A stretch of DNA of 64,000 nucleotides, taken from NCBI GenBank assembly GCA_963815095.1, contig CAWFFH010000003.1, forward strand, positions 800,001 to 864,000, given 5' to 3'. The stretch is from Candidatus Bathyarchaeota archaeon. Its GTDB lineage: Archaea; Thermoproteota; Bathyarchaeia; Bathyarchaeales; Bathycorpusculaceae. The notes under the pieces are model-generated. The model made no database searches. It saw only the letters and a program-made list of their open reading frames with translations, and was not told the origin of the DNA. Below are positions 48,500-64,000 of this stretch, piece after piece. The first letter of the stretch is position 1. Every line of letters starts with the position of its first letter. The position numbers and the translations under genes are program-made.

Positions 48500-49693
48500 G
48501 TGTTTAAGAGTAAATGGACACAAAGAGCCTTCTTCTTTGTAATATGCGCCATAGGCTTTTTTGCAATTTTTAGTTCAACTATGTCAAAGAACCCAGTTCT
48601 CAAACCCTTCGCAAGCAGCCTTGGTACCCCCAGCGACCTGTTGGGCATAGTCGCTTCCGCCTCAACTATCCCCGGTATCCTCATCAGTTTACCTGCCGCT
48701 TCGCTCTCCAACGTCTTTGGAAGACGCAAGGTTCTGTTGTTTGCCGCTTTTGTTTTTGCTTCGGCGCCTTTTCTTTATTTAGGGGTAAATTCGTGGTGGA
48801 CATTGGCGCTTGTGCGTTTCTATCATGGATTTGCAACTGCAATTTTTATGCCTGTGGCTGAAGCTACAATCGCAACGTTGTTTCCGACTAAGCGGGGCGA
48901 ACGTATGTCACTTTTTAATTCCGCAACTGCCGTAGGCAGAGCCATGGCACCGTTCATAGGTGGTTCCATTCTTTTTGCAACCAACCAGAGCTTCTTTACT
49001 CTTTACGTTGCCGTTGGAATTGCCGGAGTTACAGCTTTTGTTATTGCCCTGCTTTTCTTGGTTGAGAAAAGGGCGGGTGTAACCGAGGTGCCTTTGGAAA
49101 AGTCGCCAAGAAAAATGTTCAGCGGATGGCTATCTATACTAAAAAATACCAGTGTTTTAGGTGTCAGCTTTGTTCAAGCAATTCAATACTATGTTTTTGG
49201 AACGGTTGATTTCTTTTTGGTTGGATACTTAACTGACGTTGTTGGCTTGAACATTTTCTTGATAGGGGTCATAACAGGCAGTGAGATTATTGCGCTGATT
49301 GTTGTTAGACCTTTAATTGGCAGGATATCTGACAGAACCGGAAGAACAAAACCAATCATAATTGGCATCGTCGCCAGCTGCTTAATTGTTGCAGCAATAC
49401 CATTCACAACCCAATTTCCGCTTTTACTTTTGTTAGCGATTGGTTATGGGGCATCTTTTGCCACGGTTCTATCCTCCACTTCGCCCTTAGTGTGCGACTT
49501 AGTGCCTGCATTGCTGGTGGCTTCTTCAGTGGGGTTCATTTCAACCATGATGGATATTGGGCAAACTCTGGGACCAATAGCTAGCGGTGTAATCTTTGCA
49601 TCTTCACTTGGGTATTCGGGAATGTTTCTTTCTCTTAGTTTTCTGTTGATAATTTCAATAGTAATTTTTGTGTTGTCCACGAAGAAAAGATGA
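48500..49693 (+). CDS. MFS transporter
   Basis: 12 TM; SLSNVFGRRKV and GRISDRTGR motif A copies. Confidence 0.9.
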   Translation: MFKSKWTQRAFFFVICAIGFFAIFSSTMSKNPVLKPFASSLGTPSDLLGIVASASTIPGILISLPAASLSNVFGRRKVLLFAAFVFASAPFLYLGVNSWWTLALVRFYHGFATAIFMPVAEATIATLFPTKRGERMSLFNSATAVGRAMAPFIGGSILFATNQSFFTLYVAVGIAGVTAFVIALLFLVEKRAGVTEVPLEKSPRKMFSGWLSILKNTSVLGVSFVQAIQYYVFGTVDFFLVGYLTDVVGLNIFLIGVITGSEIIALIVVRPLIGRISDRTGRTKPIIIGIVASCLIVAAIPFTTQFPLLLLLAIGYGASFATVLSSTSPLVCDLVPALLVASSVGFISTMMDIGQTLGPIASGVIFASSLGYSGMFLSLSFLLIISIVIFVLSTKKR

Positions 49694-49698
49694 TTTTT

Positions 49699-50364
49699 TT
49701 AGAATTGTTTTCTTTCAAACAGAGTTATGGCCACTGTGAGGAGTGCGATTGTGACTGCGGCTGCTAAACCTACGGTGAATAAGTTTGCGTTAGGTAAGTT
49801 CAGCAGGGTTGGAATTAGGGGAATGACGGATGTTTGGTTTCCTCCGTAAATGACCAATATGGCTCCGACAAGAACTGTCGGAGAGGCCACGCCGATGAGT
49901 ACGCCTGCTGAGCATGCGACTGCAACCATTGACAGGCTTATGGCTAAAGATTGAGCGGTGTCGTTGAGGACTGTGGCTGGAAATGCGCCCGCTGTAAAGA
50001 AGTCGGCCATTAAACCCGCGAGAATTGCTATAAAACTTGCAATCGCGACACAGGTGTACACTGAAAAGAATTTTGCAAGCATCAAATCTCTGCGTTTTAG
50101 TGGTCTTATTACGAATAATTCGTAAACGTGTCGGTTTTTTTCGTTAATTATTGAGACTGCAAGCATTACTGCGGCTAAGGTTCCGGCAAGGCTGGAAACT
50201 ACTAATGAAGAGATAACTGTGAAAGATATTGCCTGTCCTGTGGTGCTGACTTGGATAAAGCGGAACAATAGTGCGATGACTGGTAGGCCTATCCAGAGGA
50301 AGAGCATTACTTTGGATTTGTAGAAGCCCCTTAATTCGTCAACGTAGAGTAGTTGTAGCTTCAT
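49699..50364 (-). CDS. ABC-2 type exporter permease
   Basis: 6 TM; SIINEKNR...RPLKRRDLMLAKF. Confidence 0.85.
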   Translation of the reverse strand: MKLQLLYVDELRGFYKSKVMLFLWIGLPVIALLFRFIQVSTTGQAISFTVISSLVVSSLAGTLAAVMLAVSIINEKNRHVYELFVIRPLKRRDLMLAKFFSVYTCVAIASFIAILAGLMADFFTAGAFPATVLNDTAQSLAISLSMVAVACSAGVLIGVASPTVLVGAILVIYGGNQTSVIPLIPTLLNLPNANLFTVGLAAAVTIALLTVAITLFERKQF

Positions 50365-51329
50365 GCTGTTTCCCCCTTTTGGATATAGTTCAGGTAAATT
50401 TCATCTAGCGAAGGCGATAGCAACGTTACGCCGAGGATGCGAATGCCAAGTTTGGTTATGGTTTGCACGAGGTCGTTGATTACTTGGTCTTCGTCTGCTC
50501 CTGTCTGAAGATAGATTAAGATTCTGCCGGGTGAGGTCTGCTCGACTTTGCTTACATTCGCAATTGAGCTGAATTGTTGCCATTTGTCGGTGACGTATGA
50601 GAGGAGTACTTCGACTATTTTTTGGTTAGACAGTTGGGATTTGAGTTCATTCATGGAGCCGACCATTTTGATTTTTCCGCGGCTTAGGATTCCAATTCGG
50701 TCTGCTACGTCTTGGACGTCGCTTAGGATATGTGATGAAAACAGAATTGTGGTGCCGTTCTTTGCGAGTTTTAGAACAATTTCTTTGAATTGGTGGCGGC
50801 TCAACGGGTCCAATCCGCCTAAGGGTTCATCCATAACCAAAAGTTTGGGATCATGCAAAAGCGCCTGCGCTAACCCAACCTTCTGTGCCATGCCGCCGGA
50901 GAGCTGAGAAATCTTTTTGTGACGCACATCACTAAGAGACATCAACTCCAAAATTTTGGGTATGCGTTCCTCCACTTCCATTTCGGTGAGCCCTGAAAGT
51001 TTCCCAAACGTCTTAAGTGCATGGTCAACGGTGCGCCACTCTTGGAAAGCCACGTTTTGGGGCAGGTATCCCAGTAATTTATGTGCCTCAAATTTCTGTT
51101 TTGGCAAGCTGTAACCGCCTATGAGGACTTCTCCCTGAAAATCGTTAATTAATCCAACCAGAATTTTGAGGGTAGTGGTTTTTCCTGCCCCGTTGGGACC
51201 AATGTACCCAAAGATTTCTCCTTCTTTAATTTCAAAAGACACGTTGTCTAGGGCGCGGAATTGGTTGTAGTTTTTGGTTACCTCGCGAAGTACAACGCAT
51301 GCATTTTGGTTGGGGGAATAGTTAGCCAT
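50361..51329 (-). CDS. ABC transporter ATP-binding subunit
   Basis: GPNGAGKTT, LSGGM, MDEP, SSH. Confidence 0.95.
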   Translation of the reverse strand: MANYSPNQNACVVLREVTKNYNQFRALDNVSFEIKEGEIFGYIGPNGAGKTTTLKILVGLINDFQGEVLIGGYSLPKQKFEAHKLLGYLPQNVAFQEWRTVDHALKTFGKLSGLTEMEVEERIPKILELMSLSDVRHKKISQLSGGMAQKVGLAQALLHDPKLLVMDEPLGGLDPLSRHQFKEIVLKLAKNGTTILFSSHILSDVQDVADRIGILSRGKIKMVGSMNELKSQLSNQKIVEVLLSYVTDKWQQFSSIANVSKVEQTSPGRILIYLQTGADEDQVINDLVQTITKLGIRILGVTLLSPSLDEIYLNYIQKGETA

Positions 51330-51429
51330 TTTTTAACCTGTTCCATTTATTCTGTGACTTGTCTTTTTATGTTATTCGAATCATTTTAAGAAAAAACATC
51401 CAAGCGAAGTAGGATAATCAAATGTGCCT

Positions 51430-52791
51430 CTAATTTGGTGAATCGACCCAGCCAAAACTTTTCTTAACCGCCCAAACAATGAAAGGAAACACCAAGCTGA
51501 GTGCTATCAAAACAAAGGCTGAAGTATGAAACAGTTGAAAGTAATTATTCATCGGTCCAGAGAAAACGTTAAACCCATAATATGTGACGGAGTCCACGCC
51601 GAAAGCCACAAACCCAACCCACTTATCCAGAAAAGTGATGCTTTCGATTAAAGAAGCAAACAGTAAAACTAACCCAATTCCAATGAGAATTGGCTTAATC
51701 CAATGAACTCTCTTTTTCCAATTTGCTGAAGCAATCAGTAAGGTGCCTTTATCTGCCAAAGACGCAGCCAGCAAACAGTAAAACGGCAAAGCCAGATAAT
51801 TGTACTTAAAAGCGCTAACGTAGGGAACTGTTAAATGAGAACCAAACACCAAAAACAAATCCAGCACAGCAACCGCTACTATAGTTCCAACACAGAGAGC
51901 ATCCAACCAAACAATTTTTGCCAAAACTTTCCTATAGAGACGTGATAATACCAAAGAGAAAAGTCCCGCGGCAAACAGAAACCACCCGGCACTCTTAACC
52001 AGGGTGATGGGCAAAAACAACAGCGAAGGATTAGACACCAACACTGGATGGGTTATGTCGCTTGCTAAGTAGACTCCGAAGAAGTTTTGGTTGGCAAACC
52101 CTCCAAACCAAACCGCCTGCAACACAAAAGAGGGTGCAAGAAAAATCAGCACTTTAGGCAATGTTAGTTTGAATTGGTACTCTTTTCTTTGCAGAAGAAT
52201 CATTAACAAAAGGGGAACGAGCATAAAGACAGCAAAGAGTTTGGTCATTAATGCGACGGCAAAAAAGACCCCTGATAGCGCCAGTAGCTTTTGGGAATTT
52301 TTGCGAACAGCAAAAACCCCTGCAATCAAGAATAGCAGGCTGAAGAACAGGCTTTGGTTGTCTATGAGGAAGATTCTTGACATGTAAAGGTGCCAGGGAA
52401 CGATGCCGAAGAGTGCAGCAGCCACCAACCCTGTTCGTTTTCCGTATAGCAAGGTGCCTAAAGCATAGACGAGCAAGACGCAGCCAAGTCCAAAGGCAGT
52501 AACCACATCTACCCCGTTAAGGTAGGATAACCCGAATGCCTGGAAGACAGGTGCATCCATGTAGAAGCCCAAGGGCGGCTGATTAATCATAAGCCCAGTG
52601 GTCACATAAGGAAACCCACTCGATATTACACTTGACGCGGCTTGAAACTCAAGCTGCGCATCCCAATTGGTGTAAGTGCCCGTTGAAACTGACACGAGGA
52701 AGGCGCCAAGTAAAACTCCAATTAGTTGGTAGTGTGCATCCAAATGGGATCTAAAATTTCTTGTTTTCACTTTGCCTTCCTGCAGTAGCAT
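51430..52791 (-). CDS. GT39/ArnT-like (PMT-2) GT-C glycosyltransferase
   Basis: NWD, NQPPLGFY, LYGKRTGLVAAALF, SRIFLID, ALMTK. Confidence 0.8.
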   Translation of the reverse strand: MLLQEGKVKTRNFRSHLDAHYQLIGVLLGAFLVSVSTGTYTNWDAQLEFQAASSVISSGFPYVTTGLMINQPPLGFYMDAPVFQAFGLSYLNGVDVVTAFGLGCVLLVYALGTLLYGKRTGLVAAALFGIVPWHLYMSRIFLIDNQSLFFSLLFLIAGVFAVRKNSQKLLALSGVFFAVALMTKLFAVFMLVPLLLMILLQRKEYQFKLTLPKVLIFLAPSFVLQAVWFGGFANQNFFGVYLASDITHPVLVSNPSLLFLPITLVKSAGWFLFAAGLFSLVLSRLYRKVLAKIVWLDALCVGTIVAVAVLDLFLVFGSHLTVPYVSAFKYNYLALPFYCLLAASLADKGTLLIASANWKKRVHWIKPILIGIGLVLLFASLIESITFLDKWVGFVAFGVDSVTYYGFNVFSGPMNNYFQLFHTSAFVLIALSLVFPFIVWAVKKSFGWVDSPN

Positions 52792-52969
52792 ACTTGGTGT
52801 TTACTGTTTTAAAATTTCGCAATCAAACCCTGATTATCTCGTTGGGATCTGTATTTTTGGTTTGGGAAATTTGGGGTTTGTGGTAAGTTTTAAAAAGGTT
52901 TCGTGGTTTAGTAAGAATTACTATTTGAGGTGGATAAGTTGTGGCGATGTTTGGCTGGAGGGTTTACCT

Positions 52970-53488
52970 TTGAGGGGAAAGGCATGGTCGATTGATGAAG
53001 AGCGGCTATTACGACAACTCGTTGAAGAAGGAAGGGATATCGATGGAATTTCCCAAGTTATGGGTATAACGCGAATTTCCATAAAGGGTAAAATTAGCAA
53101 TTTAGGATTAAAACTGATTGTTGCAACTGGTCTGCAGAATTCAGTTGCAGCAGCAGCAACAACTTCTCCGGTTCCAACCTTCGATTCCGCTGGGGTTGTT
53201 GATCCAGCTTCAGTCGTCCATTCTGTTATAGTCGAGAAGGTTGAAGCGGAATTGAAGATAAAAAGACCCTTACCCAGCATCGAGGAGAAAATGCGGGAAG
53301 TGGATGATGCTTCAAGAGCGTTACATCAAAAGGGTCTTAATCCAACAGAGATTAAACGATTAAGTAAGATCATCGACGCTGCGAAAGTGTACAACCAACT
53401 CTTTGAAAAGTATGCACACTACCGCGACTTAGAAAATGAACTCATCGAGTTGAGGCGCCAGCTTGCGACAGAAAGATCCAAAAAGTAA
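52970..53488 (+). CDS. Myb/HTH-like DNA-binding protein with C-terminal coiled coil (terminase small subunit candidate)
   Basis: TTG at 52970 after GGAGGG; GKAWSIDEERLLRQLVEEG...ISQVMGITRISIKGK; overlaps start of TerL. Confidence 0.6.
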   Translation: MRGKAWSIDEERLLRQLVEEGRDIDGISQVMGITRISIKGKISNLGLKLIVATGLQNSVAAAATTSPVPTFDSAGVVDPASVVHSVIVEKVEAELKIKRPLPSIEEKMREVDDASRALHQKGLNPTEIKRLSKIIDAAKVYNQLFEKYAHYRDLENELIELRRQLATERSKK

Positions 53489-54923
53489 CGCTCAAAGTCG
53501 TCGATGCTTCCACCCAGATGAGCTTCAAGCTCAGTGGGAAGGTCTTCGGGAAGACTACCGGCTCCATCAGGCGTCCAAGGTTGCGCAGGTTGATGCAGTT
53601 AAGGGTGATACTGGAAAGTTCTTCAGCGAAATTTGCCATCTTAAACCTTTTGCATATCAGCTTGAGCTAGCAGAGTTGTATCGGCGTTATCAGTTTTTGG
53701 CTGTTAGGTGGCCTAGGCAGACGGGCAAGAGCACCTCCATCGGTGGACTCCTTTTGGAGGATGCCTATGAGAATAACGATCTCAATATTGGGTTCATTGG
53801 ACCCAGCTTTCGCCAAACCAAACTCAACCTCCGGCGCGTAGCGGGTTTTTGCCGCAACCTACCTTCTGGAACTTGTAGCATTCAAAGAACCCGCATAAGC
53901 TTCAAAAACGGCTCCTTCATTGAAGCTTTTCCAAATAATCCTGAAACAATTCGAGGCAATACTTTTCATAGGCTTTGGTGGGATGAGACCAACTTTACTG
54001 CAGGTGATGACGACCTCTACGACGCCATCCTGTTCACCTTGGGAACCACAAACGGCAAGCTCATCGCTAGCAGTACTCCCTTCAACACCGACTCCCTGTT
54101 CTGGAGAATGTGCAACCACAAAGACTTCACCGACTTTGCAAGACACCATTTCTCCTTCGAGGCAGCCTTGGATCCTAAGGGTCCACTTAATGCGGCGATG
54201 GTTGAGCGGATAAGGAAACAGTTTGGGGATGACCCAACTCGGTGGCGGCGGGAGATGGAGGCGGAGTGGGCTGAAGATGAGGATGTGTGGTTACCGCAGA
54301 GCTTGATTGTTTCGTGTATTGGCACGGCTAAGAATTGTGGTTGAGACCTCGAAGTTTACGATACTGAAAAGTGTTATAGTGGAGATTTTTTTGTTGGCTT
54401 AGATATAGGTCAAGTAAGAGACTACACCTCCCTGACTGTTGTCGAGCGGGTTGATGACATGATCTATTTGAGGCATCAAAAGCTGTTTCCACATCCCACC
54501 AATCATGCACACATCTTAGGCTACCTCAAACGATTGCAGGACCAATGGGGGGGCTTCCAGAAAATTCGCGTAGATTTCACCCGCGAAGGACCCAGCCTAA
54601 TCAAAGACATGGAAACTGCAGGGATAGAAAACGCTGAAGGCGTAAACTTTAGTGTTCCCCGCAAAAGCGAAATGGCGTATCTTTTAAAAAAACGGATGAT
54701 GAATCAACAAATCCGCTTTCCCTTGCTTACCTGGGAAAAACCCTACCGAAGCGACATATGCACCGAACTAAACGTTGAAAAATACCAACTGCGCAAAGAC
54801 GGCAACATAGGATACAGCCACCCAAACGGGACCCACGACGATGTATTCTGGAGCTTCGCGTTGGCTGTTTACGGAACAGTTGACATGGAACCCGAACCAT
54901 TCTTGGCTATAGTGCCTCGATAA
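53463..54923 (+). pseudogene. Phage terminase large subunit (ATPase plus RNase H-like nuclease) with in-frame TGA at 54342-54344
   Basis: PFAYQ, Walker A WPRQTGKST, Walker B LWWDE, STP, RREMEAEW. After the TGA the same frame gives FFVGLDIGQVRDYT, RVDFT, GTHDDVFW. Confidence 0.88.
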
Positions 54924-55136
54924 ACTGTTAGTTTGTATCAGAAAACGAGAAATGAGTTAAAATGGTTCGAGGTCAGCCCCAGTCCGCAGGAAAAGGTCTC
55001 CTGTTGGCAAAAAACTCAGCCAGAGGAGGGTATAAAGCTAAAAAGTTTGGTATTTTATTTTGTTGTGATGTTAAGCTATTTGGCGGTAAGTCTTTCCTAC
55101 GGTATCCCCGATTTTGGAAAGGCCTTGGTTGGATGT

Positions 55137-55388
55137 TCAAGCGGAATTGCTGGCAACAATTAGAACTTGATCAGTCAAGAAATCTGTCAATTTTTTTAAG
55201 CTTGCTTTCTTGTGTGTGGCTAAATGATTCTTTATGGCGCCGTTCATAGCCTTCAAGTCGGGCACTACTAGAATTTCAAAGCCGCAGGAACATTTGATAA
55301 TTGGCATGCGTGTTTGATTTTCAACAAACTTGCTGGTCTGATCTTGGGTAAAAATGAAGTTTGTTTCTTGGGTGCCTTTTTTCTTCAT
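55137..55388 (-). CDS. Small CxC...H-x3-H zinc-binding protein
   Basis: IKCSCGFEILVVPDLKAMNGAIKNHLATH; likely start ATG 55388. Confidence 0.65.
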   Translation of the reverse strand: MKKKGTQETNFIFTQDQTSKFVENQTRMPIIKCSCGFEILVVPDLKAMNGAIKNHLATHKKASLKKLTDFLTDQVLIVASNSA

Positions 55389-55662
55389 GATTATTTCTTT
55401 GCTCCGAGAATGGAAGTTTATTGTTGTTTGGCAAAATTTATTGACTTGTTGTAGGCGTGGCACAGTCACAACTGCATCGCAATTTATGGGTAATTCTTCT
55501 TATTTATGTATCATTCAATTTATTTTGTTGCAATAACATGTAATATGCTAATAAAAAGCAAAATTGCTTGAATTAAACAACAGCAAAACAACAAAGCTTA
55601 TTACATTCTGCTTCATAACATACAGATATATATGAATAAATTCGAAGGAAAGGAAATTAAAG

Positions 55663-55956
55663 ATGAGACGATCAAAACTCGAAATGTACATTGACATCAT
55701 TAAAATGTTGGCACACTCAGGTCCATCAAAGTTAACACACATCATGTACAAAGCTAACCTCAACTGCAGCATTCTCAACGAGTATTTGGACTTCTTAATC
55801 AAACAGGGTCTTGTCGAAAAACGAACCATTGAAAAAGATCATACAGTTTTCGTAGTTACTCAAAGAGGCATAAATGTACTGAAGTATTTCCGAGAACTCA
55901 CGCAATCGCTGCCGCTAGAACAAGAAACCCAACGACAAAAGACACAATTGCTATAA
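55663..55956 (+). CDS. Archaeal winged-helix transcriptional regulator
   Basis: RRSKLEMYIDI, THIMYKANLN, YLDFL..QGLV, VTQRG. Confidence 0.88.
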   Translation: MRRSKLEMYIDIIKMLAHSGPSKLTHIMYKANLNCSILNEYLDFLIKQGLVEKRTIEKDHTVFVVTQRGINVLKYFRELTQSLPLEQETQRQKTQLL

Positions 55957-56349
55957 TAACCGACCAATGGTCTTTAGAACCACGCCACAGAGAATTACCG
56001 AAAACTTGCGATGCTTTCTTAAAAGGTGTCGTATCTGACAAAAAAACCTTGAATACCTTTAATATTTTTTAAAGGTCTGATTATAAGGCAAATGCTTTTT
56101 ATTATAAGGACACAAATTTGGGGCTCCATTAAATTTTAATAACTTTAAAAGATGCTTAAAACAAAACAAATATTCTATCTATTGAAAAACATTTTTCAGG
56201 TAAAATCAATTCACTTATTCAAAGTCAGAGTTAAAATAAGACCCAAAATTGAAGCCTAAAGAATTAAGCAGTGAGTGTTCTCTCTCAACTATTAGGAATC
56301 GATAATAATTACCTAAGATATATGGGTACACAATATATGAGTTGATGTC

Positions 56350-57135
56350 TTGGATTATCTGTCGCCTCTTAGATCAGAACTTAAACTTAAAATTTTATTA
56401 AGTCTCTTAACCGGTGAGAGAAAAATAGCTGACCTTAGATCTGATGTTGAGACCCGAGATACCACCATTCTTCACGTTCTTGGAGAATTTGGTGAGCTAG
56501 GCCTAATAACAAAGTCGCAAGGAGTGTACCGATTGTCTTCTCTTGGTCTACTTGAAACCAACGTTTTTAAAGAGCTCATTTCAACAACCGACGTTATTGA
56601 AAAGTTTAAGGACTTTTGGTTGTCACACAACGTTACTGATATACCCTCATATCTTCTTCTAAACTTAGGTGCATTAAGCGACGCTTCGATAGTTCGCACT
56701 GAAGCGACCGATCTGAACCTCGTTCACGAAAAAATCGTAAATATTCTAAAATCCTCAAAAAGGATCATGGGAATTTCGCCAGTATTTCATGGCGATTATG
56801 TTCCGGTTGTCGAAAAATCGTTGAAAGAAGGCAATTCTGTGACCTTAATATTTACCCCTAAAGTTCTAAAGAAAGCTTCGGCGTTAGCAGAGACAGGAAT
56901 CATAAAAAAATATGTTCTGGAAGGGAAATTGAAAATCTTCGTAAATGAGGACGTAAAGATTGCTCTAACTGTGGCCGAGAATAGTTTTTCTATGGGCTTA
57001 TTTAATCTAAACGGTGAATACGATTATGGCATAGACTTGATGTCCACAAGCAAGGCAGCCATCGAATGGGGTGAACATCTCTTTGAAGATGTCGCTAAAC
57101 GAAGTATGCCAATGGACATAAAGTCATTGATTTAA
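56350..57135 (+). CDS. HTH plus DUF1724 (FilR1-like) transcriptional regulator
   Basis: N-terminal wHTH; FW.SH....IP; LGLF...GEYD; AIEWGEHLF. Confidence 0.8.
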   Translation: MDYLSPLRSELKLKILLSLLTGERKIADLRSDVETRDTTILHVLGEFGELGLITKSQGVYRLSSLGLLETNVFKELISTTDVIEKFKDFWLSHNVTDIPSYLLLNLGALSDASIVRTEATDLNLVHEKIVNILKSSKRIMGISPVFHGDYVPVVEKSLKEGNSVTLIFTPKVLKKASALAETGIIKKYVLEGKLKIFVNEDVKIALTVAENSFSMGLFNLNGEYDYGIDLMSTSKAAIEWGEHLFEDVAKRSMPMDIKSLI

Positions 57136-57273
57136 GAAAGCGATTCTTGCGTTTTCTTCAATTGGATTAAGTCGTTAATTTTAACTCGATTTTCACTTGA
57201 TTATCTGAATGGGTAAATGTGGATTTTGAATATAGATTAGGTCTTCATAAGTCTCAATACTTATCGAGAATCT

Positions 57274-58206
57274 ATGTTTGGATGGAGAAAGTTCATGAAG
57301 GCTCTATCCACTAAAATAGAACCAGCCAAACCCTCAAAAAATTATGCAAATCACCTTCTGAAAATAACCTATTTTCGAGCAAGCAAAATTACAAAATTCA
57401 TGACTTCAACATCACTCTTCCTATCTTTGTATGCATCATTGGTAGTAGTTTTTAGTTTTCTCGTATATGGACATAGCATTGCCCCCGAGATTGTCTTGGC
57501 AGCATTCCTGGTAACCTTTTCAATATATAGTTTGAATAAGGCCACTGATAAGATAGAGGATGCGATCAATTCCCCAAATATTGAGTCAAGATCTCGCTCA
57601 TATTATGTGATTGCTTCGGTTTCCGCAATGATTGCCTGTCTCTCAATTGGCGTATTAGATGGTTTGAAGGTTCTTCTTGTTTTATCAATGCCTTTTGCGA
57701 TCGGTCTTGTTTACAGTGTTAGAGTAGCTAAAACCTTGCCTCGCCTTAAAGAAATTACAGGGGTGAAAAGCTTTATAGTCGCACTTAGCTGGGCTGTGAC
57801 AGGCGCTTTTCTGCCATATGCGCTTGGAGCCGTACAATTTCAAATAGTATTCTTCGTTTTCACTTTCATATTTATTCAAGTGCTGGTAAAAGAAGTTATT
57901 TTTGACTCCTTGGATATGAAAGGAGACAAGGTTTCTGGAGTAACTACGATTCCTATGGTTTTGGGAAAACGGAGGACAAAATTCTTTTTAGTGATTATAA
58001 ACGCATTCTCCGGATTACTGGTAATGTTTTCCACTTTTAGTGGCTTAATTGTTCAATTTGTTTCTTTATCGATCTTCGGTATCGTGTTTAGTTTCTTAAT
58101 AATTTGGCTTTTTGTTGGCAAAGATCATAAGAAACTCCATGGGGAACCAGTTGTTGAAGGAAAATGGATGCCTGTAGCAGATTTAATAAAATCTATCCTG
58201 CGTTAA
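57274..58206 (+). CDS. UbiA-family prenyltransferase
   Basis: NKATDKIEDAINSP and FDSLDMKGD...GVTTIP Asp-rich motifs; about 8 TM. Confidence 0.85.
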   Translation: MFGWRKFMKALSTKIEPAKPSKNYANHLLKITYFRASKITKFMTSTSLFLSLYASLVVVFSFLVYGHSIAPEIVLAAFLVTFSIYSLNKATDKIEDAINSPNIESRSRSYYVIASVSAMIACLSIGVLDGLKVLLVLSMPFAIGLVYSVRVAKTLPRLKEITGVKSFIVALSWAVTGAFLPYALGAVQFQIVFFVFTFIFIQVLVKEVIFDSLDMKGDKVSGVTTIPMVLGKRRTKFFLVIINAFSGLLVMFSTFSGLIVQFVSLSIFGIVFSFLIIWLFVGKDHKKLHGEPVVEGKWMPVADLIKSILR

Positions 58207-58441
58207 TCAAATAGATTATCGAGTTTCACGGATGAAATAAGATTTGATAAGATTTGTTTAATACTCAACTGTCCAAAAGTTAGGTGTTAGTGCTGGTCTA
58301 ACTCGTATGATCTCGCAGTCTGTTATTCCTCTTAGTTACAGTTGTTTTGGCTGTTGGATTTGTGAAAAGTTAATCCACATAATTGTAGTGAGTCGTAAGA
58401 CTTATAAGAATAGCTAATGCAATAAAACAGTTGACCCAAAA

Positions 58442-59245
58442 TTGAATAGCGTCTCGAGTAATACTAAATCTGTCAGCAGAACTATCTTTCTTATCTCAGT
58501 CGTAATATTACTCGTGGTTTGCGTTACAGTCGGTTTTGTAGGGTACAACAACACAAATAATCTCCAAACCAGCTACAACTTACTGCAAACCGACCAACAG
58601 AACCTTAATTCTACATACACCCAGTTACAAACAACATATAATCAGTTACAAGAATCAAACCAGAACCTGCAGATACAATTAGCATTACTTCAATCAAACA
58701 ATAGTCAACTTCAAAATACCAACATCATCCTTCAATCCCAGTGGGGTTTACTCGACGACCAATTTACCTCACTTAACAGTCAGTACAAACAATTGCAATC
58801 AACCAACAATCAGTCCCAGACACAGATAGCTAATCTTCAACACCAGATTGCAAGCCTTCAGTCACAATTATCGAACGCGACAATTTTAATCGCTCAGTTG
58901 CAAGGTCAAACAGGAATCATACCCTCGTACATAGACCTGCATTACGTCGAACCCACAGGTTCACCGAGTTATTACTTTTTGCAATTGTCACTGAAAAATA
59001 CTGGAGAAGTGCCCATAAAACAGATATTTGTTACTTTCAATTCTGTCCGGATTCCGATGACCTTCACGTATCTGAATTCAACGATTAGTGCTGACATACC
59101 ACTTCCTCCAAACCAAACGACTAATGGAGGTCAGAGCGTCACGCCGCCAGTCAATAACGTTGGCACCTATCCACTGGTAATCCAGGGATGGGCCACCAAC
59201 TCGTCAGTCTATACCTATCAAACAACAATAACTGCCCACCTATAA
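58442..59245 (+). CDS. Membrane-anchored Gln/Asn-rich coiled-coil protein with C-terminal beta domain
   Basis: N-terminal TM, about 16 heptads of LQ...NQ type, LSLKNTGEVPI. Confidence 0.75.
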   Translation: MNSVSSNTKSVSRTIFLISVVILLVVCVTVGFVGYNNTNNLQTSYNLLQTDQQNLNSTYTQLQTTYNQLQESNQNLQIQLALLQSNNSQLQNTNIILQSQWGLLDDQFTSLNSQYKQLQSTNNQSQTQIANLQHQIASLQSQLSNATILIAQLQGQTGIIPSYIDLHYVEPTGSPSYYFLQLSLKNTGEVPIKQIFVTFNSVRIPMTFTYLNSTISADIPLPPNQTTNGGQSVTPPVNNVGTYPLVIQGWATNSSVYTYQTTITAHL

Positions 59246-59680
59246 TCAGTCATCGCAGTGGTTCTGTAGGGTAAATTTTTGGATTGAAAAACGCTAGTGC
59301 GAATTGTACCACTCAACAATTGTGCGCGCAATCTGCTCTGAATAACCAGCCTTAACTAACATTTGGACAAATTCTTGATCGCTCAAACGCATTACCCACC
59401 ACATCTCAAGCCTCGATTAATATTAAGCGATATTTCGGTTCTGTGAATATTTCGGAAAATATTCCCGACGGACCTTACATTGATTGAGCACATGAAAACA
59501 TAACATTTTAAGTGCCAATTAGCCAAATGTCAATAGTTTGAAAGAATGTCAGCACAGTCATACTAAATAACAAAGCGTTATGATATTGATTGTTTAATTT
59601 TTCATAACAATTATGAACAGATCTCAACCACATTTATATCGAGTCAAAGGTAATCAATATCAAGAAAGCAAGGTGAAAAA

Positions 59681-59743
59681 ATGGAAAAAACAACCCCAAA
59701 GAAAACTGCCCCAAAAGAAACCCTGTACTTCCCACACGTATAG
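59681..59743 (+). CDS. 20-aa micro-ORF MEKTTPKKTAPKETLYFPHV
   Basis: AGGTGA-A5-ATG RBS; TATA-like TTTATAT about 45 bp upstream. Confidence 0.4.
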   Translation: MEKTTPKKTAPKETLYFPHV

Positions 59744-59752
59744 GTGAAAAAA

Positions 59753-59875
59753 ATGATTGCAGAAATAGTATTTGCTCTAAGCACAAGCATGTTGATGGCA
59801 GCCTTTGCATATTACAACATCAAATACCGAAAATTCATCAAATACAACACTTCCAAACATAACAACAGGAGATGA
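59753..59875 (+). CDS. 40-aa single-TM micro-protein MIAEIVFALSTSMLMAAFAYYNIKYRKFIKYNTSKHNNRR
   Basis: Same AGGTGA-A-run RBS overlapping the previous stop; hydrophobic N-half, basic tail; oligo-T at 59934-59938. Confidence 0.5.
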   Translation: MIAEIVFALSTSMLMAAFAYYNIKYRKFIKYNTSKHNNRR

Positions 59876-60090
59876 CCATATCAGACCAGGAATTATCAAA
59901 CCAAAATCTTTCGAGAATACCTTCAATTCCTCTTTTTTAATCAAAATATAGCTCGCCTATGACACCAAACTAAATATCTTGCAAGGCAAAGACCTGAAAA
60001 AATTGGCAGGTTAGAATAGATGCTAGCCGTTCATCAAAATACTGAAACTTTAATATCCCGCTTCTTTCCAATAAAATGTGAAGCATTATT

Positions 60091-60930
60091 ATGACAATTT
60101 TTCAGGCACCAACTAAGCTTTCGAAAGGCATGCGCCTTATCTTGCTAGCAGCGAGCATTCTTGTTCTTTCAGCAGGAGTTGATCTCACCCTCCTCACTGA
60201 ACAGACTGCCACCTCGTTTGCTTGGACCATCCAATCCTCAATAACAGCTGCCTTCCTAGGCGCAGGCTACCTAGCTAGCTTCCTGCTTGAATTTCTTGCG
60301 TATCGGCAAAAGACATGGGCCAACGCCCGTATAGCCGTACCATCAGTTCTCATATTCACAGTCCTAACTCTGATTACAACCATTTTACACTTCGACAAAT
60401 TCCATTTTAACAGTCCCATATTTTCAGCTATGTTAGCCGCTTATCTATGGTTAGCTATTTACGTCGCAGTCCCAATCGTCTTGCTGATTATTCTTATCAA
60501 TCAAATCAGGCTGCAAAGTTCGACACCGAAACGAAAAGCCCCACTGTACACTTGGATGCGCCTTGTACTCGCAACTCAAGGAATAATAATGCTGGTTACA
60601 GGCTTGATCTTATTCTTGTTGCCTTCGACAGCCTCAACCTTCTGGCCTTGGGCACTCACCCCATTAACGAGTGGCGCGATTGGTTCCTGGCTTCTTGGAA
60701 TTGGCATTATAGCATTGCATATGACGTGGGAAAACGATCATCAGCGCAACAAGATTGCATATATAAGTTATACAGCGCTGGGGGTACTTCAAGCGCTATC
60801 ATTAGTGCGCTATAGCGGGGAGGTCGGCTGGTCCACGGAGGGCAGCTGGGTTTATCTGATTTTTGTCGTCAGCATTATTGCAACGGGATTATTAGGGTGG
60901 AAAGCTTCAAGGCAAGTAAAAATCGATTAA
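60091..60930 (+). CDS. Multi-pass membrane protein with internal duplication
   Basis: FAWTI.SSITAAFLGA and FWPWALTPLTSGAIGS repeats; 8 TM. Confidence 0.75.
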   Translation: MTIFQAPTKLSKGMRLILLAASILVLSAGVDLTLLTEQTATSFAWTIQSSITAAFLGAGYLASFLLEFLAYRQKTWANARIAVPSVLIFTVLTLITTILHFDKFHFNSPIFSAMLAAYLWLAIYVAVPIVLLIILINQIRLQSSTPKRKAPLYTWMRLVLATQGIIMLVTGLILFLLPSTASTFWPWALTPLTSGAIGSWLLGIGIIALHMTWENDHQRNKIAYISYTALGVLQALSLVRYSGEVGWSTEGSWVYLIFVVSIIATGLLGWKASRQVKID

Positions 60931-61279
60931 TCTCCAATAGCGTAGCAGTGAGAAATTTGACTTTAAAGGCCACATCCGACTGGAAATAGGATCTCTATCT
61001 GTAAAAAAAATACCTATTTGAAAGAGTTCGATTTTTCCTTAGCTGTTGTGGTTTGACCCATGGTTCAAATCCCATGGAAACCAACATGATCCACATCAAC
61101 CCGTTCAGGTAAGTCCAGTCTGACTATATCTCAACATCTTCTTATCAGTTAATGGAGATAAAATTCCCACGTTTTAGGTTCTTAATACAATAATTATTCT
61201 ATTAATATTCCGTATGAAACGTGAGCCAATAGAGTTATATTGACTGTGCAACCATCTGATTTATAGGAGAATTTTTGAA

Positions 61280-61666
61280 ATGACTACTGATGGGAACAAA
61301 GTCATCGTTCTCAGATTCATCAAAGAAGTTTTGGGCGGCGGCAATATCGATCTTATCGACGAATTGCTAGCACCGAACTATGTGAATCCGAGTATGGGCG
61401 TCACTAATCGACTTGGTTTCAAGGCTGTGATTTCCGGTCTGAAGACCACTGCGCCAGCACGCGATTTTCAAATCGCAGACCTAGTGGCCGAAGGCGACTC
61501 AGTCGTATTTCGAGGCAGCATGAACTTTACCCTCTCCACCGGGAAAAAAGCCTCTGCCAGAGTTATCACCTATTACCGTCTCGTCAACGGGAAGATCGTA
61601 GAAGATGAACCGATAAGTACCCCACCTCTAACCGAATTGTTGGCCGACATGATGCCGCCGAAATAA
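61280..61666 (+). CDS. SnoaL-like / NTF2-fold ester cyclase family protein
   Basis: NKVIVLRF..EV...GN.DLIDELLAP.Y, LVAEGD.V, YRLVNGKIVE. Confidence 0.85.
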   Translation: MTTDGNKVIVLRFIKEVLGGGNIDLIDELLAPNYVNPSMGVTNRLGFKAVISGLKTTAPARDFQIADLVAEGDSVVFRGSMNFTLSTGKKASARVITYYRLVNGKIVEDEPISTPPLTELLADMMPPK

Positions 61667-61791
61667 GGTTCCTAAGCTACATCTTCAAAAGTAAGAGTCT
61701 TGCGAGTGCTTATTGGGCCAAGGATCCCCTCATGATTGATATTTCGGAAATGACCAATGGGATTTTTTTTAAACATTTTCCTTAAATTTTT

Positions 61792-62350
61792 TCAAGTTAA
61801 TTTTGTGGGTTTGTGGCTCTTGATGAAGGTTCCCTCTTCGAGTTCTTCGAACGCTTTGTCTAATTCCTCTTCAGTGTTCATCACAATTGGTTCTCTCCAC
61901 GCAACTGGCTCGTTCAAAGGTTCACCAGCTACAAAAAGAAATCGAGCACCAGATAGGCTTGAAATTTTAACTGAATCGCCTCTACTGAAAACGGCGCATT
62001 GTCCATTTTTAATTTTCTGATCAGCAACTTCGACAGATCCGTTTATGAAGTAAATAAAAACTATAAGGTTTTTGTGCGTCAAATGTTGGAATTCTTTTCC
62101 AGCAGCCAACTCAACGTCAAAATATTCGGTTTCAGTCGACTGGTCCCGAACGGGTCCTTCAACTCTATCTATTTTACCCGCTATGACTTCAATCGTTTGA
62201 ACGTCTTTCACGAATGTAGGTATTTGCTCATTTGTTATCCCCGATATTTTGGATCAGTCATCTTCCTTTTAGCTGGCTGATTCACCCAGAGCTGAAATCT
62301 CTGCATTAAACCGTCATATTTTTGGAGCAATTCTTGATGGAAAATGCCTG
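61792..62350 (-). pseudogene. Pirin pseudogene (5'-truncated and frameshifted)
   Basis: SGIFHQE...FQLWVN.PA..KM..P.Y in one frame, frameshift about 62237, then AGEPLNEPVAW.EPIVMNT.EEL..AF; N-terminal cupin half missing. Confidence 0.85.
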
Positions 62351-62363
62351 ATTTTAGATTCAT

Positions 62364-62387
62364 TGGTGTTTGAGTTTTGTCACTCAC
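62364..62387 (+). repeat. 24-bp direct repeat copy 1 (TGGTGTTTGAGTTTTGTCACTCAC) containing palindrome TGAGT-N6-ACTCA
   Basis: Identical to 63203..63226. Confidence 0.9.
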
Positions 62388-62457
62388 CCATCCTAATATT
62401 GAATGAACTCTAACTAATTTTTCGCATATGACTTTAGCGTTTGAGGGAGGTGAAAAA

Positions 62458-63054
62458 ATGAATAAGAAAATCTTAGCTTTCATATCTGTACTTCTATTGG
62501 CATCTATGGCCGTACCCGCTCTTGTTCAGGCAACACCTCTGAAGGAAAAAAACAATGACAAATTCCTAACCTGGAGCGACTCAGCAACCTTTAGCCTTTT
62601 TAACATACTCGGTGGTGACCATCAATACGTTCCTTCAGTTGAAGAAACGAATAAACTAGTTATAAACTACGACGAATCATTCATAACTTATACAATTACA
62701 ATCGGCAGCCACACCTACAATCTGGGTACTGACTTCACATACACTGGTCACGTCGAATACACCTATTTTGACCCTGTGTTTGAAGGACCAGCAGGTCTAC
62801 TTTTCCCTTCGTCTTATAGCGCATCACAAGTTAAAGTCGACTATACACTTGACTTTTCAGCCATTGCAGGTGGCGTAGACGGAACCGTTAACATGAGGGC
62901 AGTGTTTGGCCCCGGGAACAGCGGAATAACGAGTTTGTCAGGAACAGGTGACTTACAAAACGTTCAGGTAAAACTTGCCAACGGAGAGTCAGGGGTATCC
63001 GGCTACGTAGTTAGTATCGCGCACGCAGGCTTAGTTTCTGGTTGGCCAGAATAA
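62458..63054 (+). CDS. Secreted beta-rich hypothetical protein
   Basis: GGAGGTGA RBS before ATG 62458; signal peptide MNKKILAFISVLLLASMAVPALVQA; GTGDLQNV motif; oligo-T after stop. Confidence 0.8.
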   Translation: MNKKILAFISVLLLASMAVPALVQATPLKEKNNDKFLTWSDSATFSLFNILGGDHQYVPSVEETNKLVINYDESFITYTITIGSHTYNLGTDFTYTGHVEYTYFDPVFEGPAGLLFPSSYSASQVKVDYTLDFSAIAGGVDGTVNMRAVFGPGNSGITSLSGTGDLQNVQVKLANGESGVSGYVVSIAHAGLVSGWPE

Positions 63055-63202
63055 ATGTGATAGCCGTTAACACTTTTCCCTTTTTTTTTAAATCTTTCAA
63101 GTTAATCCTGCATGAAGCTACATCAACAAAGGAATTAATATTAAAACACAATTTCGAAGTACACTTAGTCTTCTCAACTTATGCTTACCCAACGGAATGC
63201 AA

Positions 63203-63226
63203 TGGTGTTTGAGTTTTGTCACTCAC
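63203..63226 (+). repeat. 24-bp direct repeat copy 2
   Basis: Identical to 62364..62387; 51 bp upstream of ATG 63278. Confidence 0.9.
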
Positions 63227-63277
63227 TTAATCCTATATGCTGAAATCAACTGTTAGGTTAATTGTAAAGGGCGAATT

Positions 63278-63673
63278 ATGCCAGAAATCAAATGGACAAC
63301 ACTATCCCAAGTTAATCCTCAACAAAACTACTTCGCCTATGCTGCACTTGCAGAACGGAAAACCGCTTGGTCCTATTTTAGTTACCTTATGAGAGCACGA
63401 AAAATCCAAAACCAGCTAAACCACACGGAAGGAATAGTTGGTTTTACGGCGCGATTGGATTTCCTCAGCAAAAAAGTAATCCAGTTAGCCGTCTTCAAAA
63501 ATGAAAACTCTCTCAAAGAGTTTGCGCATTCTGGACAACACGCCAACTGCATGGCAAACACAAAAAGCAGCATGAAATGGCTCAAACAATCCACTTGGAA
63601 TATTTTAGGCTCTGAAATTCCTCCAAACATGCCTGATGCTCTTAATAGGATTGAAGCGGAGGTGAGAACATAA
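63278..63673 (+). CDS. DUF3291/ABM-like dimeric alpha-beta barrel protein
   Basis: QL....GIVGF, F.NE.SLKEFA.SG.H...M pattern. Confidence 0.65.
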   Translation: MPEIKWTTLSQVNPQQNYFAYAALAERKTAWSYFSYLMRARKIQNQLNHTEGIVGFTARLDFLSKKVIQLAVFKNENSLKEFAHSGQHANCMANTKSSMKWLKQSTWNILGSEIPPNMPDALNRIEAEVRT

Positions 63674-64000
63674 CTAGAATTGAAAGAACCCTTGAAATTA
63701 ATGCATAACCAGAAAAAATCTTTGGTCTTCTAAATTGGGAAAACAGTGTTCAATGGTATTCAGCGTTTAAGACAGTTCAGCGTACTTCTACAATTAAGAA
63801 TGCTGTAGGCGAAACTGTTCATATAATTGGCGAAGTTGCTGGCACTAAAGCGGAATGGGATGGAGAGACAACTGAATCAGTGGAGAATGTAAGGCATGCC
63901 TGGCGTTCAATAGGTGGAAGCTTTACTGGTTTTGGATCCTTTAATCTCGCCCCGACTGACAACGGAACTAAAGTGTCAATGATGATGGATTATGAGTTAC
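63670..64000 (+). pseudogene. SRPBCC/polyketide cyclase family pseudogene, runs off window end
   Basis: After GGAGGTGA: (ATA)TRIERTLEINA*PEKIFGLL.W...W...AWRS...F.L.PT.NGTKV....DYEL; ATA in place of ATG and in-frame TAA at 63706-63708. Confidence 0.75.

Follow-up and report, generated by a model that had tools for sequence, protein, structure and literature searches.

The palindrome TRAGT-N6-ACTYA, copies of which lie upstream of four genes in a variable region of a Bathyarchaeota chromosome, is a post-hoc pattern fitted to the data, which appears to lump two unrelated types of predicted regulator site in promoters with one probable chance match. The stretch analyzed here, hereafter the window, comprises 64,000 nucleotides (nt) and corresponds to positions 800001-864000 of contig C3 in assembly G000 (2.69 Mb, nine contigs); positions are those of the window unless preceded by C3. 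An initial annotation had taken the palindrome either for the core site of a gene-cassette accretion system or for the operator of a common regulon under the two winged helix-turn-helix (wHTH) regulators encoded nearby. We consider it probable that the copies instead belong to three separate contexts: a conserved block between a FilR1-like regulator gene and a UbiA gene (57248), a duplicated element tied to TrmB-family regulators (62371 and 63210), and a chance or gene-private match (58389), with gene gain and loss proceeding by ordinary insertions and deletions (indels). The stretch itself is a variable chromosomal region of a Bathyarchaeota metagenome-assembled genome (MAG), and the genes examined in it each appear to have their own promoter. 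Comparisons were made with 120 genomes of the genus including G000 (119 others), the relatives being titled Candidatus Bathyarchaeota MAGs.

Exact copies of TRAGT-N6-ACTYA were found at 57248, 58389, 62371 and 63210, all upstream of plus-strand genes, just as the initial annotation had stated. The four copies in the window compare with 0.34 expected, and none of 100 shuffles contained four or more. The whole genome contained 13 copies, four of them within 6 kb here, against 11.7 expected under a first-order Markov model; the comparison with the genome-wide background, proposed earlier as a check, therefore returned a count at expectation. Ten copies were non-coding against 3.15 expected (six against 3.15 when the four local copies were left out), as judged by a crude mask of open reading frames (ORFs) of at least 100 amino acids (aa), by which 79% is coding. 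The pair at 62371 and 63210 does not count as independent, because both copies sit in one 30-nt direct repeat (copy 1, 62358..62387, and copy 2, 63197..63226, plus strand) with 28 of 30 positions identical. The 24-nt exact core of this repeat has only two genomic copies, even when up to five substitutions are allowed. In a look-elsewhere scan of all palindrome classes (5-nt arm with one R/Y position, spacer of 3-10) over 8338-bp segments genome-wide, some class reached at least three distinct copies in 241 of 318 segments and at least four in 71 of 318. When segments were ranked by the smallest Poisson p value for the local versus the genome-wide count, the target segment, with three distinct copies of the 13 (p ~1e-5), came 22nd of 328. 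Matches with up to two mismatches were at chance level (90 in the window against 97.8 expected), and for this reason no weight was given to the near-matches at 56272 and 61222 that had been listed alongside the exact copies; conservation at the former ends at the two closest genomes, and the latter belongs to the conserved transcription factor B recognition element (BRE) and TATA box of the SnoaL promoter and is not palindromic. The motif was conserved upstream of orthologs at UbiA only, and was absent before the coiled-coil homolog and six DUF3291 homologs. Taken together, the non-independent copies, the post-hoc fit, the background genome count and the chance-level near-matches did not support a shared palindrome occurring more often than by chance; the local cluster is the one exception.

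The copy at 57248 lies between a gene for a FilR1-like (DUF1724) wHTH regulator (56350..57135, plus strand; PF08350, 93.5 bits) and a gene for a UbiA-family prenyltransferase (57295..58206, plus strand; PF01040, 50.6 bits). The regulator shows an N-terminal wHTH followed by a FilR1_middle domain in Pfam, and a PDB sequence search with this protein gave no match. The UbiA start was assigned to ATG 57295, which is led by a GGAG Shine-Dalgarno sequence, because the alternative ATG 57274 is not conserved across loci. UbiA homologs were present in 44 of the 120 genomes, G000 included, and the comparison covered 30 of the UbiA loci. Of these 30, 28 have a FilR1-like gene as the immediate upstream neighbor of the UbiA homolog, in the same orientation, and the description of the genes in this stretch as functionally unrelated is thus partly wrong, as these two form a conserved pair. 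The sequence CATAAGTnTCA was found in the spacer between the two genes at 17 of the 30 loci, even where the UbiA proteins were only 39-45% identical; the other 13 loci lack it because the genes abut and leave no spacer.

Alignment of the 17 loci delimited a conserved promoter/operator block at 57227..57279 on the plus strand (TGAATATnGATTAG..TTCATAAGTnTCATTACtTAT..GAAATCnATATT), the 52-nt conserved sequence of which reads TGAATATnGATTAGTGnTTCATAAGTnTCATTACtTATtTGAAATCCATATT. The DNA upstream of the block was unalignable; some 20 nt beyond its other end come GGAG and the start codon. The palindrome copy (57248-57263) is nested within an 11-nt dyad that has a 30-nt spacer. Its left arm, within ATAAGT, was invariant in all 17 loci and its right arm ACTTA was exact in 8, with a mean of 5.2 of 6 complementary positions for the inner 6-nt palindrome. 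The outer inverted repeat, GAATATnGATT...AATCnATATTy, showed a mean of 9.1 of 11 complementary positions, with slid registers reaching at most 3.7, and one arm position of this outer dyad covaried (A-T in four loci, G-C in six). A position weight matrix (PWM) of the 52-nt block scored 69.5 bits at 57227 and 2.4 at the next-best genomic site, and a PWM of the block core scored 32.8 bits at 57244 and 18.1 at the next; the other three motif copies were absent among the top genomic hits of the block PWM. The UbiA site thus combines a dyad conserved across orthologous promoters, a fixed place and a regulator encoded alongside, as expected of an operator. These data suggest that 57227-57279 is likely a candidate single-target promoter/operator of the FilR1-like/UbiA module, and that the adjacent FilR1-like protein is a plausible binder. 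The earlier proposal of this regulator (56350) accordingly stands as plausible for the copy at 57248 and fails for the other copies, which do not match the block. Bound as a dimer to the dyad, which has the TATA-like GAATATAG on one side and the Shine-Dalgarno sequence on the other, the FilR1-like protein would gate UbiA transcription; the block, which travels with the two-gene module, may be the sole genomic site of the regulator. The possibility of an RNA element in this region was also considered, and was ruled out by an Rfam scan of 40000-64000 (E<=0.1), which gave no match, together with RNAalifold on the 17-locus UbiA-upstream alignment, which yielded no consensus fold (-0.45 kcal/mol).

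The copies at 62371 and 63210 have a different setting. Copy 1 of the 30-nt element holds the palindrome at 62371-62386 together with a degenerate GTGTT-N8-GTCAC dyad and is followed by the TATA-like CTAATAT, and copy 2 holds the palindrome at 63210-63225 and is followed by the TATA-like CTATAT. Downstream of copy 1 is a gene for a 198-aa secreted protein (62458..63054, plus strand, from ATG 62458), which has no Pfam match and was called from its signal-peptide-like N-terminus. The gene is rare (matches in 3 of the 120 genomes including G000), and its product is weakly similar to a secreted protein of G045 that lies behind the same element. Downstream of copy 2 is a DUF3291-like gene of 131 aa (63278..63673, plus strand), whose PF11695 match is weak (18.3 bits, below the cut-off) and which has homologs in 6 of the 119 other genomes. 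It is followed by the start of an SRPBCC (Polyketide_cyc2) gene (63674..64000, on to C3:864107, plus strand), which is probably a pseudogene; a TAA interrupts its frame close to the 5' end, and all that stays open is a C-terminal ORF of 75 aa. Just beyond the window are genes for a 115-aa TrmB HTH protein (C3:864165-864512; PF01978, 48.5 bits) and, on the minus strand, for a TrmB-family protein of 680 aa (C3:864529-866571; PF01978, 50.6 bits against a cut-off of 25.6). The match of the latter to the sugar-binding domain PF11495 covers residues 291-403 only and reaches 22.0 bits against a cut-off of 22.2; the large C-terminal part of the protein could be placed in no confident family. Of the 120 genus genomes, 107 contain the 680-aa family (TrmB-680); a single genome yields as many as 10 matches, and several copies often cluster within 10 kb (G105:C12, G085:C1, G125:C3).

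Similarity between the two promoters spans the 30-nt element and extends, less closely, to CTAATAT/CTATAT, whereas the part from TATA to start is strongly diverged, unlike the nearly identical element. For the DUF3291-like gene, this part has counterparts in the promoters of DUF3291 homologs in G076, G077 and G012, where the element is missing; because these core promoters are similar without it, the element appears to be an addition upstream of an older core promoter. In G105, a 680-aa paralog and a small TrmB-HTH gene adjoin a DUF3291 homolog (56%), and an unbiased repeat search of that locus revealed three copies of a 42-nt element. Each of the three lies just upstream of a TATA-like sequence, and the transcription units behind them differ: one is a secreted protein with the small TrmB-HTH gene, another the DUF3291 homolog and the third a secreted protein of 325 aa. 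The promoter-proximal part TTTTG[TC]GAC[TC]CAC matches TTTTGTCACTCAC of G000. A search pattern derived from these five copies (two in G000, three in G105), TTTTGYSACYCAC-N5-9-ATAT, gave 8 matches in the 120 genomes versus 1 in the reversed control. Seven of the eight (two in G000, three in G105, and one each in G045 and G125) precede secreted-protein or DUF3291 genes or lie at most about 100 nt from a TrmB-680 start; the new matches are those in G045, G125 and G016, of which the last is without such context. In G045 and G125 the match lies 16 nt from the start of a 680-aa paralog; on its other side, a secreted protein of about 190 aa is encoded divergently.

These sites contain a dyad, which reads AGTGAC-TGACTTTT-GTCACT in G125, GTGTT-TGAGTTTT-GTCAC in the G000 promoters (same frame, degraded left arm), and GTCAC-N9-GTGAC in G105, where the center base is swapped in both arms relative to G125 and the palindrome is kept. 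In G000, TGAGT-N6-ACTCA is a second, offset palindrome arising from the same bases (TGAC to TGAG); TGAGT-N2-20-ACTCA occurred twice in 182.6 kb of TrmB-680 loci, where 2.1 were expected. In G000 itself, 16 nt separate the 680-aa gene from a perfect GTGACATCGATTTGTCAC upstream of it (C3:866588-866605), which is the only non-coding one among six such palindromes in that genome. The dyad, at no more than one mismatch, was present within 200 nt upstream of 7 of 42 paralog starts, five of them at 14-17 nt in five genomes; this density, 7 in the 42 upstream stretches (8.65 kb in total), compares with 3 sites in 66.9 kb of gene bodies. A regulator with a TrmB HTH and a palindromic site that lies near a BRE/TATA or a start, as placed from the sequence, and that recurs beside the regulator elsewhere were thus both found, as expected of a TrmB regulon. 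For the TrmB family (PMC4158304), sites are described as short palindromes that activate when located before BRE/TATA and repress when located at the transcription start. By analogy with these site positions, the 680-aa protein would autoregulate by repressing its own gene, and would co-regulate, probably activate, the secreted-protein and DUF3291-like genes.

The remaining copy, at 58389, precedes a 267-aa coiled-coil protein gene (58442..59245, plus strand) that has only weak coiled-coil Pfam matches and was matched in 5 of the 120 genomes including G000; upstream of its sole good homolog (G001, 55%), no motif was found. The right arm of the copy (58389-58404) runs into the TATA-like TTATAA. 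BRE and TATA are ordinary archaeal promoter elements, and both this right arm and the SnoaL near-match overlap TATA-like sequence at the distance expected from Shine-Dalgarno-led starts, showing no difference from such promoters. We treat the copy at 58389 as private promoter sequence of a strain-specific gene, or as a chance match.

To compare gene order among strains, the window was set against its relatives. The closest one, G112, is collinear with 49221-62351 at 88-91% identity, with two differences. One is a 997-bp segment (58293..59289) that is absent from G112, which has 37 unrelated bp there; it contains the coiled-coil gene with 149 nt of upstream and 44 nt of downstream DNA, and the palindrome starts 96 nt inside its left junction. 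The other is a 137-bp stretch (61054-61190) that G112 lacks. Wherever a relative has a pirin homolog, its similarity to G000 ends at 62351|62352, where G000 has a pirin pseudogene (61792..62351, minus strand) with a Pirin_C match only (61792-62211). As revealed by tblastn with the intact pirin of G022, this remnant keeps residues 106-293, has lost the first 105 codons and carries one frameshift. Pirin is intact in G022 and G009, and the G022 copy adjoins succinyl-CoA ligase genes. Where G022 has 415 bp, G000 has 5.79 kb (62352-68141, to C3:868141), which contain the secreted-protein, DUF3291-like, SRPBCC, 115-aa TrmB-HTH and 680-aa TrmB-family (minus strand) genes as well as two small ORFs. 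Element copy 1 lies 6 nt inside the left end of this insertion, in which no terminal inverted repeats and no transposase were seen. Parts of the stretch occur in five public soil runs, and contigs of four of them (depth ~2-5) were compared. The junctions 58292|3, 59289|90 and 62351|2 were bridged without differences by contigs of these independent runs and are therefore not assembly artefacts.

In total, six breakpoints were mapped against G112, G022 and G009 (58292|3, 59289|90, 61053|4, 61190|1, 62351|2 and 68141|2). Only 62351|2 is near the motif, with the 30-nt element 6 nt and the palindrome 19 nt away. The breakpoint at 58292|3 lies 96 nt from a copy and that at 61190|1 lies 31 nt from a near-match, while 59289|90 and 68141|2, the right-hand junctions, carry no copy. 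The comparison of strains that the initial annotation had suggested thus placed one breakpoint of six close to a copy. Gene content here probably changes through ordinary indels in which a gene stays with its promoter; examples are the 997-bp single-gene indel and the insertion of the TrmB module, which removed the 5' part of pirin.

Several observations weigh against the reading of three separate contexts. The local cluster, 4 of 13 genomic copies inside 6 kb, is unusual by naive count, and the first eight bases of the copy at 58389, GTGAGTCG, equal the start of one of the G105 element copies. The end of the insertion 6 nt from the element had to be treated as a coincidence or as selection for an intact promoter. 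With regard to the TrmB-linked sites, only 7 of 42 paralog starts carry the dyad, G045 and G125 have almost the same sequence at the site and were counted as a single lineage, and the TRAGT pattern was found 0 times in 138.6 kb around 29 TrmB-680 paralogs versus 0.67 expected. Moreover, the left arm GTGTT of the G000 promoters agrees at only three of five positions in the GTGAC-N8-GTCAC register, whereas TGAGT-N6-ACTCA is perfect, and the latter register could be the functional one in G000 instead. Finally, we infer the TATA boxes, transcription starts, binding, regulator assignments and direction of regulation from sequence conservation and the cited TrmB literature.

Three other explanations of the palindrome were weighed against this reading. 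If it had no function, the four copies would be chance matches in AT-rich promoter DNA accompanied by a neutral local duplication of a promoter fragment; the genome count at expectation, the unremarkable look-elsewhere rank and the overlap of the pattern with the TATA-like ACTTATAA at 58389 all fit such an origin. We nevertheless regard it as unlikely, since 17 loci of low protein identity retain the UbiA block between unalignable flanks, the 30-nt element has stayed nearly unchanged while the adjoining TATA-to-start part diverged strongly, and other genomes show the element core next to members of the same gene families. A single regulon, in which one dimeric wHTH protein (55663 or 56350) would recognize TRAGT-N6-ACTYA and co-regulate the UbiA, coiled-coil, secreted-protein and DUF3291-like genes, would account for four exact copies before genes within 6 kb, for the two adjacent wHTH genes and for copies that abut TATA-like sequences. 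Conservation of the UbiA block, however, extends far past the palindrome and is not shared by the other sites, as the core PWM finds 57244 only. Two of the copies are one duplicated element whose relatives accompany TrmB-family genes and not FilR1-like or HTH_45 genes, and the position of the site relative to TATA varies (downstream at UbiA, abutting at 58389, and 7-9 nt upstream at 62371 and 63210). With near-matches at chance and not conserved, and with coiled-coil and DUF3291 homologs lacking the motif, a single regulon is very improbable. The operator interpretation of the initial annotation is thus correct in spirit, as two separate candidate regulator-operator pairs emerge, and incorrect as a common regulon of the local wHTH regulators; no observation ties the wHTH gene at 55663 to a copy.

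The third explanation is that the palindrome is a tyrosine recombinase core site, Xer- or integron-like, at which single genes are inserted, excised and reordered as cassettes. The 5-nt inverted arms around a 6-nt spacer do look like recombinase core sites, one gene is flanked by direct repeats of the 30-nt element, 839 bp apart, the 5.79-kb insertion has its left end close to copy 1, and a single gene is present or absent relative to G112; integrons are also known in archaeal MAGs (10.1101/2022.02.06.479319). Against this, a whole-genome PF00589 search returned C3:564396, C3:1217914, C6:10001 and C4:44641 (weak, below cut-off), none of them within 290 kb. The 11-6-11 symmetry amounts to only 8 of 11 in copy 1 and 6 of 11 in copy 2, and the two copies are in direct orientation. 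The 24-mer was found in none of the 119 other genus genomes at up to three mismatches, the element was absent from a metagenome collection (22-mer, 0 matches), and a degenerate 18-base pattern gave 8 metagenome matches, all unrelated in GC content and context. Relatives of the element instead keep fixed distances from TATA boxes and from the regulator start codon, as operators do, and the UbiA, SnoaL, DUF3291-like and secreted-protein genes each appear, from conservation, to have their own TATA-type promoter. The motif does not accompany the coiled-coil or DUF3291-like homologs elsewhere, and contigs of the four soil runs contained no cassette joints, although this is weak evidence at a depth of ~3. 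With the nearest recombinase hits more than 290 kb away or on other contigs, promoters of their own for the genes, and a single breakpoint of six near the motif, cassette accretion was not supported, and we find it barely credible here. A related idea is that the 30-nt element also serves to join genes to TrmB-680 modules, new genes being recruited by recombination at or near it. It would fit the bracketing of the secreted-protein unit by direct copies, the insertion end next to copy 1, and the three tandem promoter copies before three different genes in G105, and we rate it as very improbable. If true, the TrmB-680 paralog modules would be mobile, self-regulating gene cassettes in Bathyarchaeia.

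Other features of the stretch were also recorded. Pfam supported the calls that the initial annotation had made for the wHTH, FilR1/DUF1724-like, UbiA, coiled-coil, SnoaL and DUF3291-like genes, the DUF3291 match being weak. The surroundings are ordinary chromosome, with genes for RtcB, archease, adenylate kinase, CDC48, ferritin, flavodoxins, a major facilitator superfamily (MFS) transporter, parts of an ATP-binding cassette (ABC) transporter and a PMT-type glycosyltransferase. These are followed by a large-terminase gene broken into two ORFs (53463-54344 and 54459-54923; Terminase_6N and PHROG terminase matches), which has no further recognizable virion genes in its vicinity and has DNA homologs (66-81%) in most genus genomes, often more than one per genome. 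The HTH_45 winged-helix regulator gene (55663..55956, plus strand; 97 aa; PF14947, 68.2 bits) is bracketed by a 24-nt inverted repeat (55474-55497 and 55991-56014, 88% complementary), found nowhere else in the genome and kept in G112. Gene-flanking inverted repeats as a general trait of HTH_45 genes were considered and rejected, as eight loci of other genomes provided one weak case.

The spacers, described initially as long and AT-rich, are not empty: the one at 59246-60090 contains a conserved operon of two small ORFs at 59681..59874 on the plus strand (59681-59743 and 59752-59874), with its own promoter from about 59590. The ORFs encode 20 aa (MEKTTPKKTAPKETLYFPHV) and a hydrophobic 40 aa, and an 11-genome alignment displayed a coding-type substitution pattern; DNA matches to the operon occur in many genus genomes. 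The TATA box of the operon is preceded, at a distance of about 20 nt, by a perfect palindrome, TTCATAAyAATTATGAA. Next is a gene for a 279-aa membrane protein (60091..60930, plus strand) without Pfam or PHROG match, which has DNA homologs of 77-81% in several genomes. The SnoaL-like gene (61280..61666, plus strand; PF12680, 53.8 bits) is preceded by a promoter and leader (61216..61279, plus strand) conserved in 14 genomes, in which the near-match (61222-61237) overlaps BRE/TATA; the conserved block runs from GAAAYGTGAGCC through TTATAT and AGGAG to the ATG, and the left-hand neighbors differ among these genomes. A T-loop-like GGTTCAAATCCC occurs at 61062-61074, inside the 137 bp missing in G112, and T-arm-like strings about 110-150 nt upstream of SnoaL are also present in G109 and G095. 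The 137-bp T-arm-like sequence may be an old tRNA or phage-type attachment (att) remnant; as a recognizable tRNA att remnant it was rejected, since GGTTCAAATCCC matches only the generic T-loop of many G000 tRNAs and ARAGORN found no tRNA there or in the loci of 14 relatives. Outliers of the palindrome scan were located elsewhere in the genome, at C3 ~108394-116732, at C3 ~1317404-1325742 and in a C1 segment near 175000. One outlier segment contains GCTYC-N7-GRAGC 20 times and may hold a repeat array such as clustered regularly interspaced short palindromic repeats (CRISPR), and two have 13-15 palindromes of RAAAA type.

A new archaeal gene-capture system is thus unsupported, and the analysis guards against following a false lead. 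What emerges are two concrete candidate regulator-operator pairs in Bathyarchaeia, the FilR1-like/UbiA pair with its 52-nt dyad-bearing block and the 680-aa TrmB family with a site of GTGAC-N8-GTCAC type before genes for small secreted proteins. The former pair lies inside the part of the window covered by the initial annotation, and the TrmB-family regulator is encoded just past the window end. To our knowledge, Bathyarchaeia are uncultured and have no experimentally mapped regulator site. The case also shows how promoter duplication may place unrelated neighboring genes under one regulator.

Among known systems, integron arrays have a tyrosine recombinase (IntI) nearby, a site at every cassette boundary and mostly promoterless cassettes under a common promoter, and Xer/dif (pdif-like) sites are 28 bp long with 11-6-11 arm symmetry and flank modules in inverted orientation. 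The present locus is unlike integron arrays in that it has no integrase and no attC-like structured sites at ORF 3' ends, the genes examined have their own promoters, the repeats are at promoter positions, and the breakpoints, except one, are off the repeats. It resembles integron arrays and clusters of attC sites lacking integron integrases (CALINs), including those reported in archaeal MAGs (10.1101/2022.02.06.479319), and Xer/pdif modules, in its co-oriented unrelated small genes, gain and loss from strain to strain and short intergenic inverted repeats. The FilR1-like regulator differs from FilR1 of Methanosaeta harundinacea in having no histidine-kinase partner nearby and in being paired with UbiA and the dyad-bearing block. 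It shares with that protein and other DUF1724 regulators (PMC3991700) the Pfam architecture and the presumed role of a DNA-binding transcription regulator.

The TrmB-linked sites can be compared with published euryarchaeal operators, TACT-N3-AGTA for the family in Euryarchaeota, TATCAC-N5-GTGATA for the Thermococcales glycolytic motif and TACT-N7-8-GAGTA in Halobacterium (PMC4158304). The dyad here, GTGAC-N8/9-GTCAC, has another spacing and arm order. The regulator is a 680-aa protein of which Pfam scores only the N-terminal HTH above cut-off, and its family is multiplied within single genomes of the genus; its predicted targets are small secreted and DUF3291-like proteins rather than sugar metabolism, its host is a Bathyarchaeota MAG, and binding here is predicted. 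Alike are a TrmB-type HTH regulator encoded beside its targets, a short inverted-repeat site whose half-sites contain GTGA/TCAC, and the location of sites just upstream of the target BRE/TATA and between TATA and the regulator's own start. Both candidate regulator-operator pairs are of an ordinary type.

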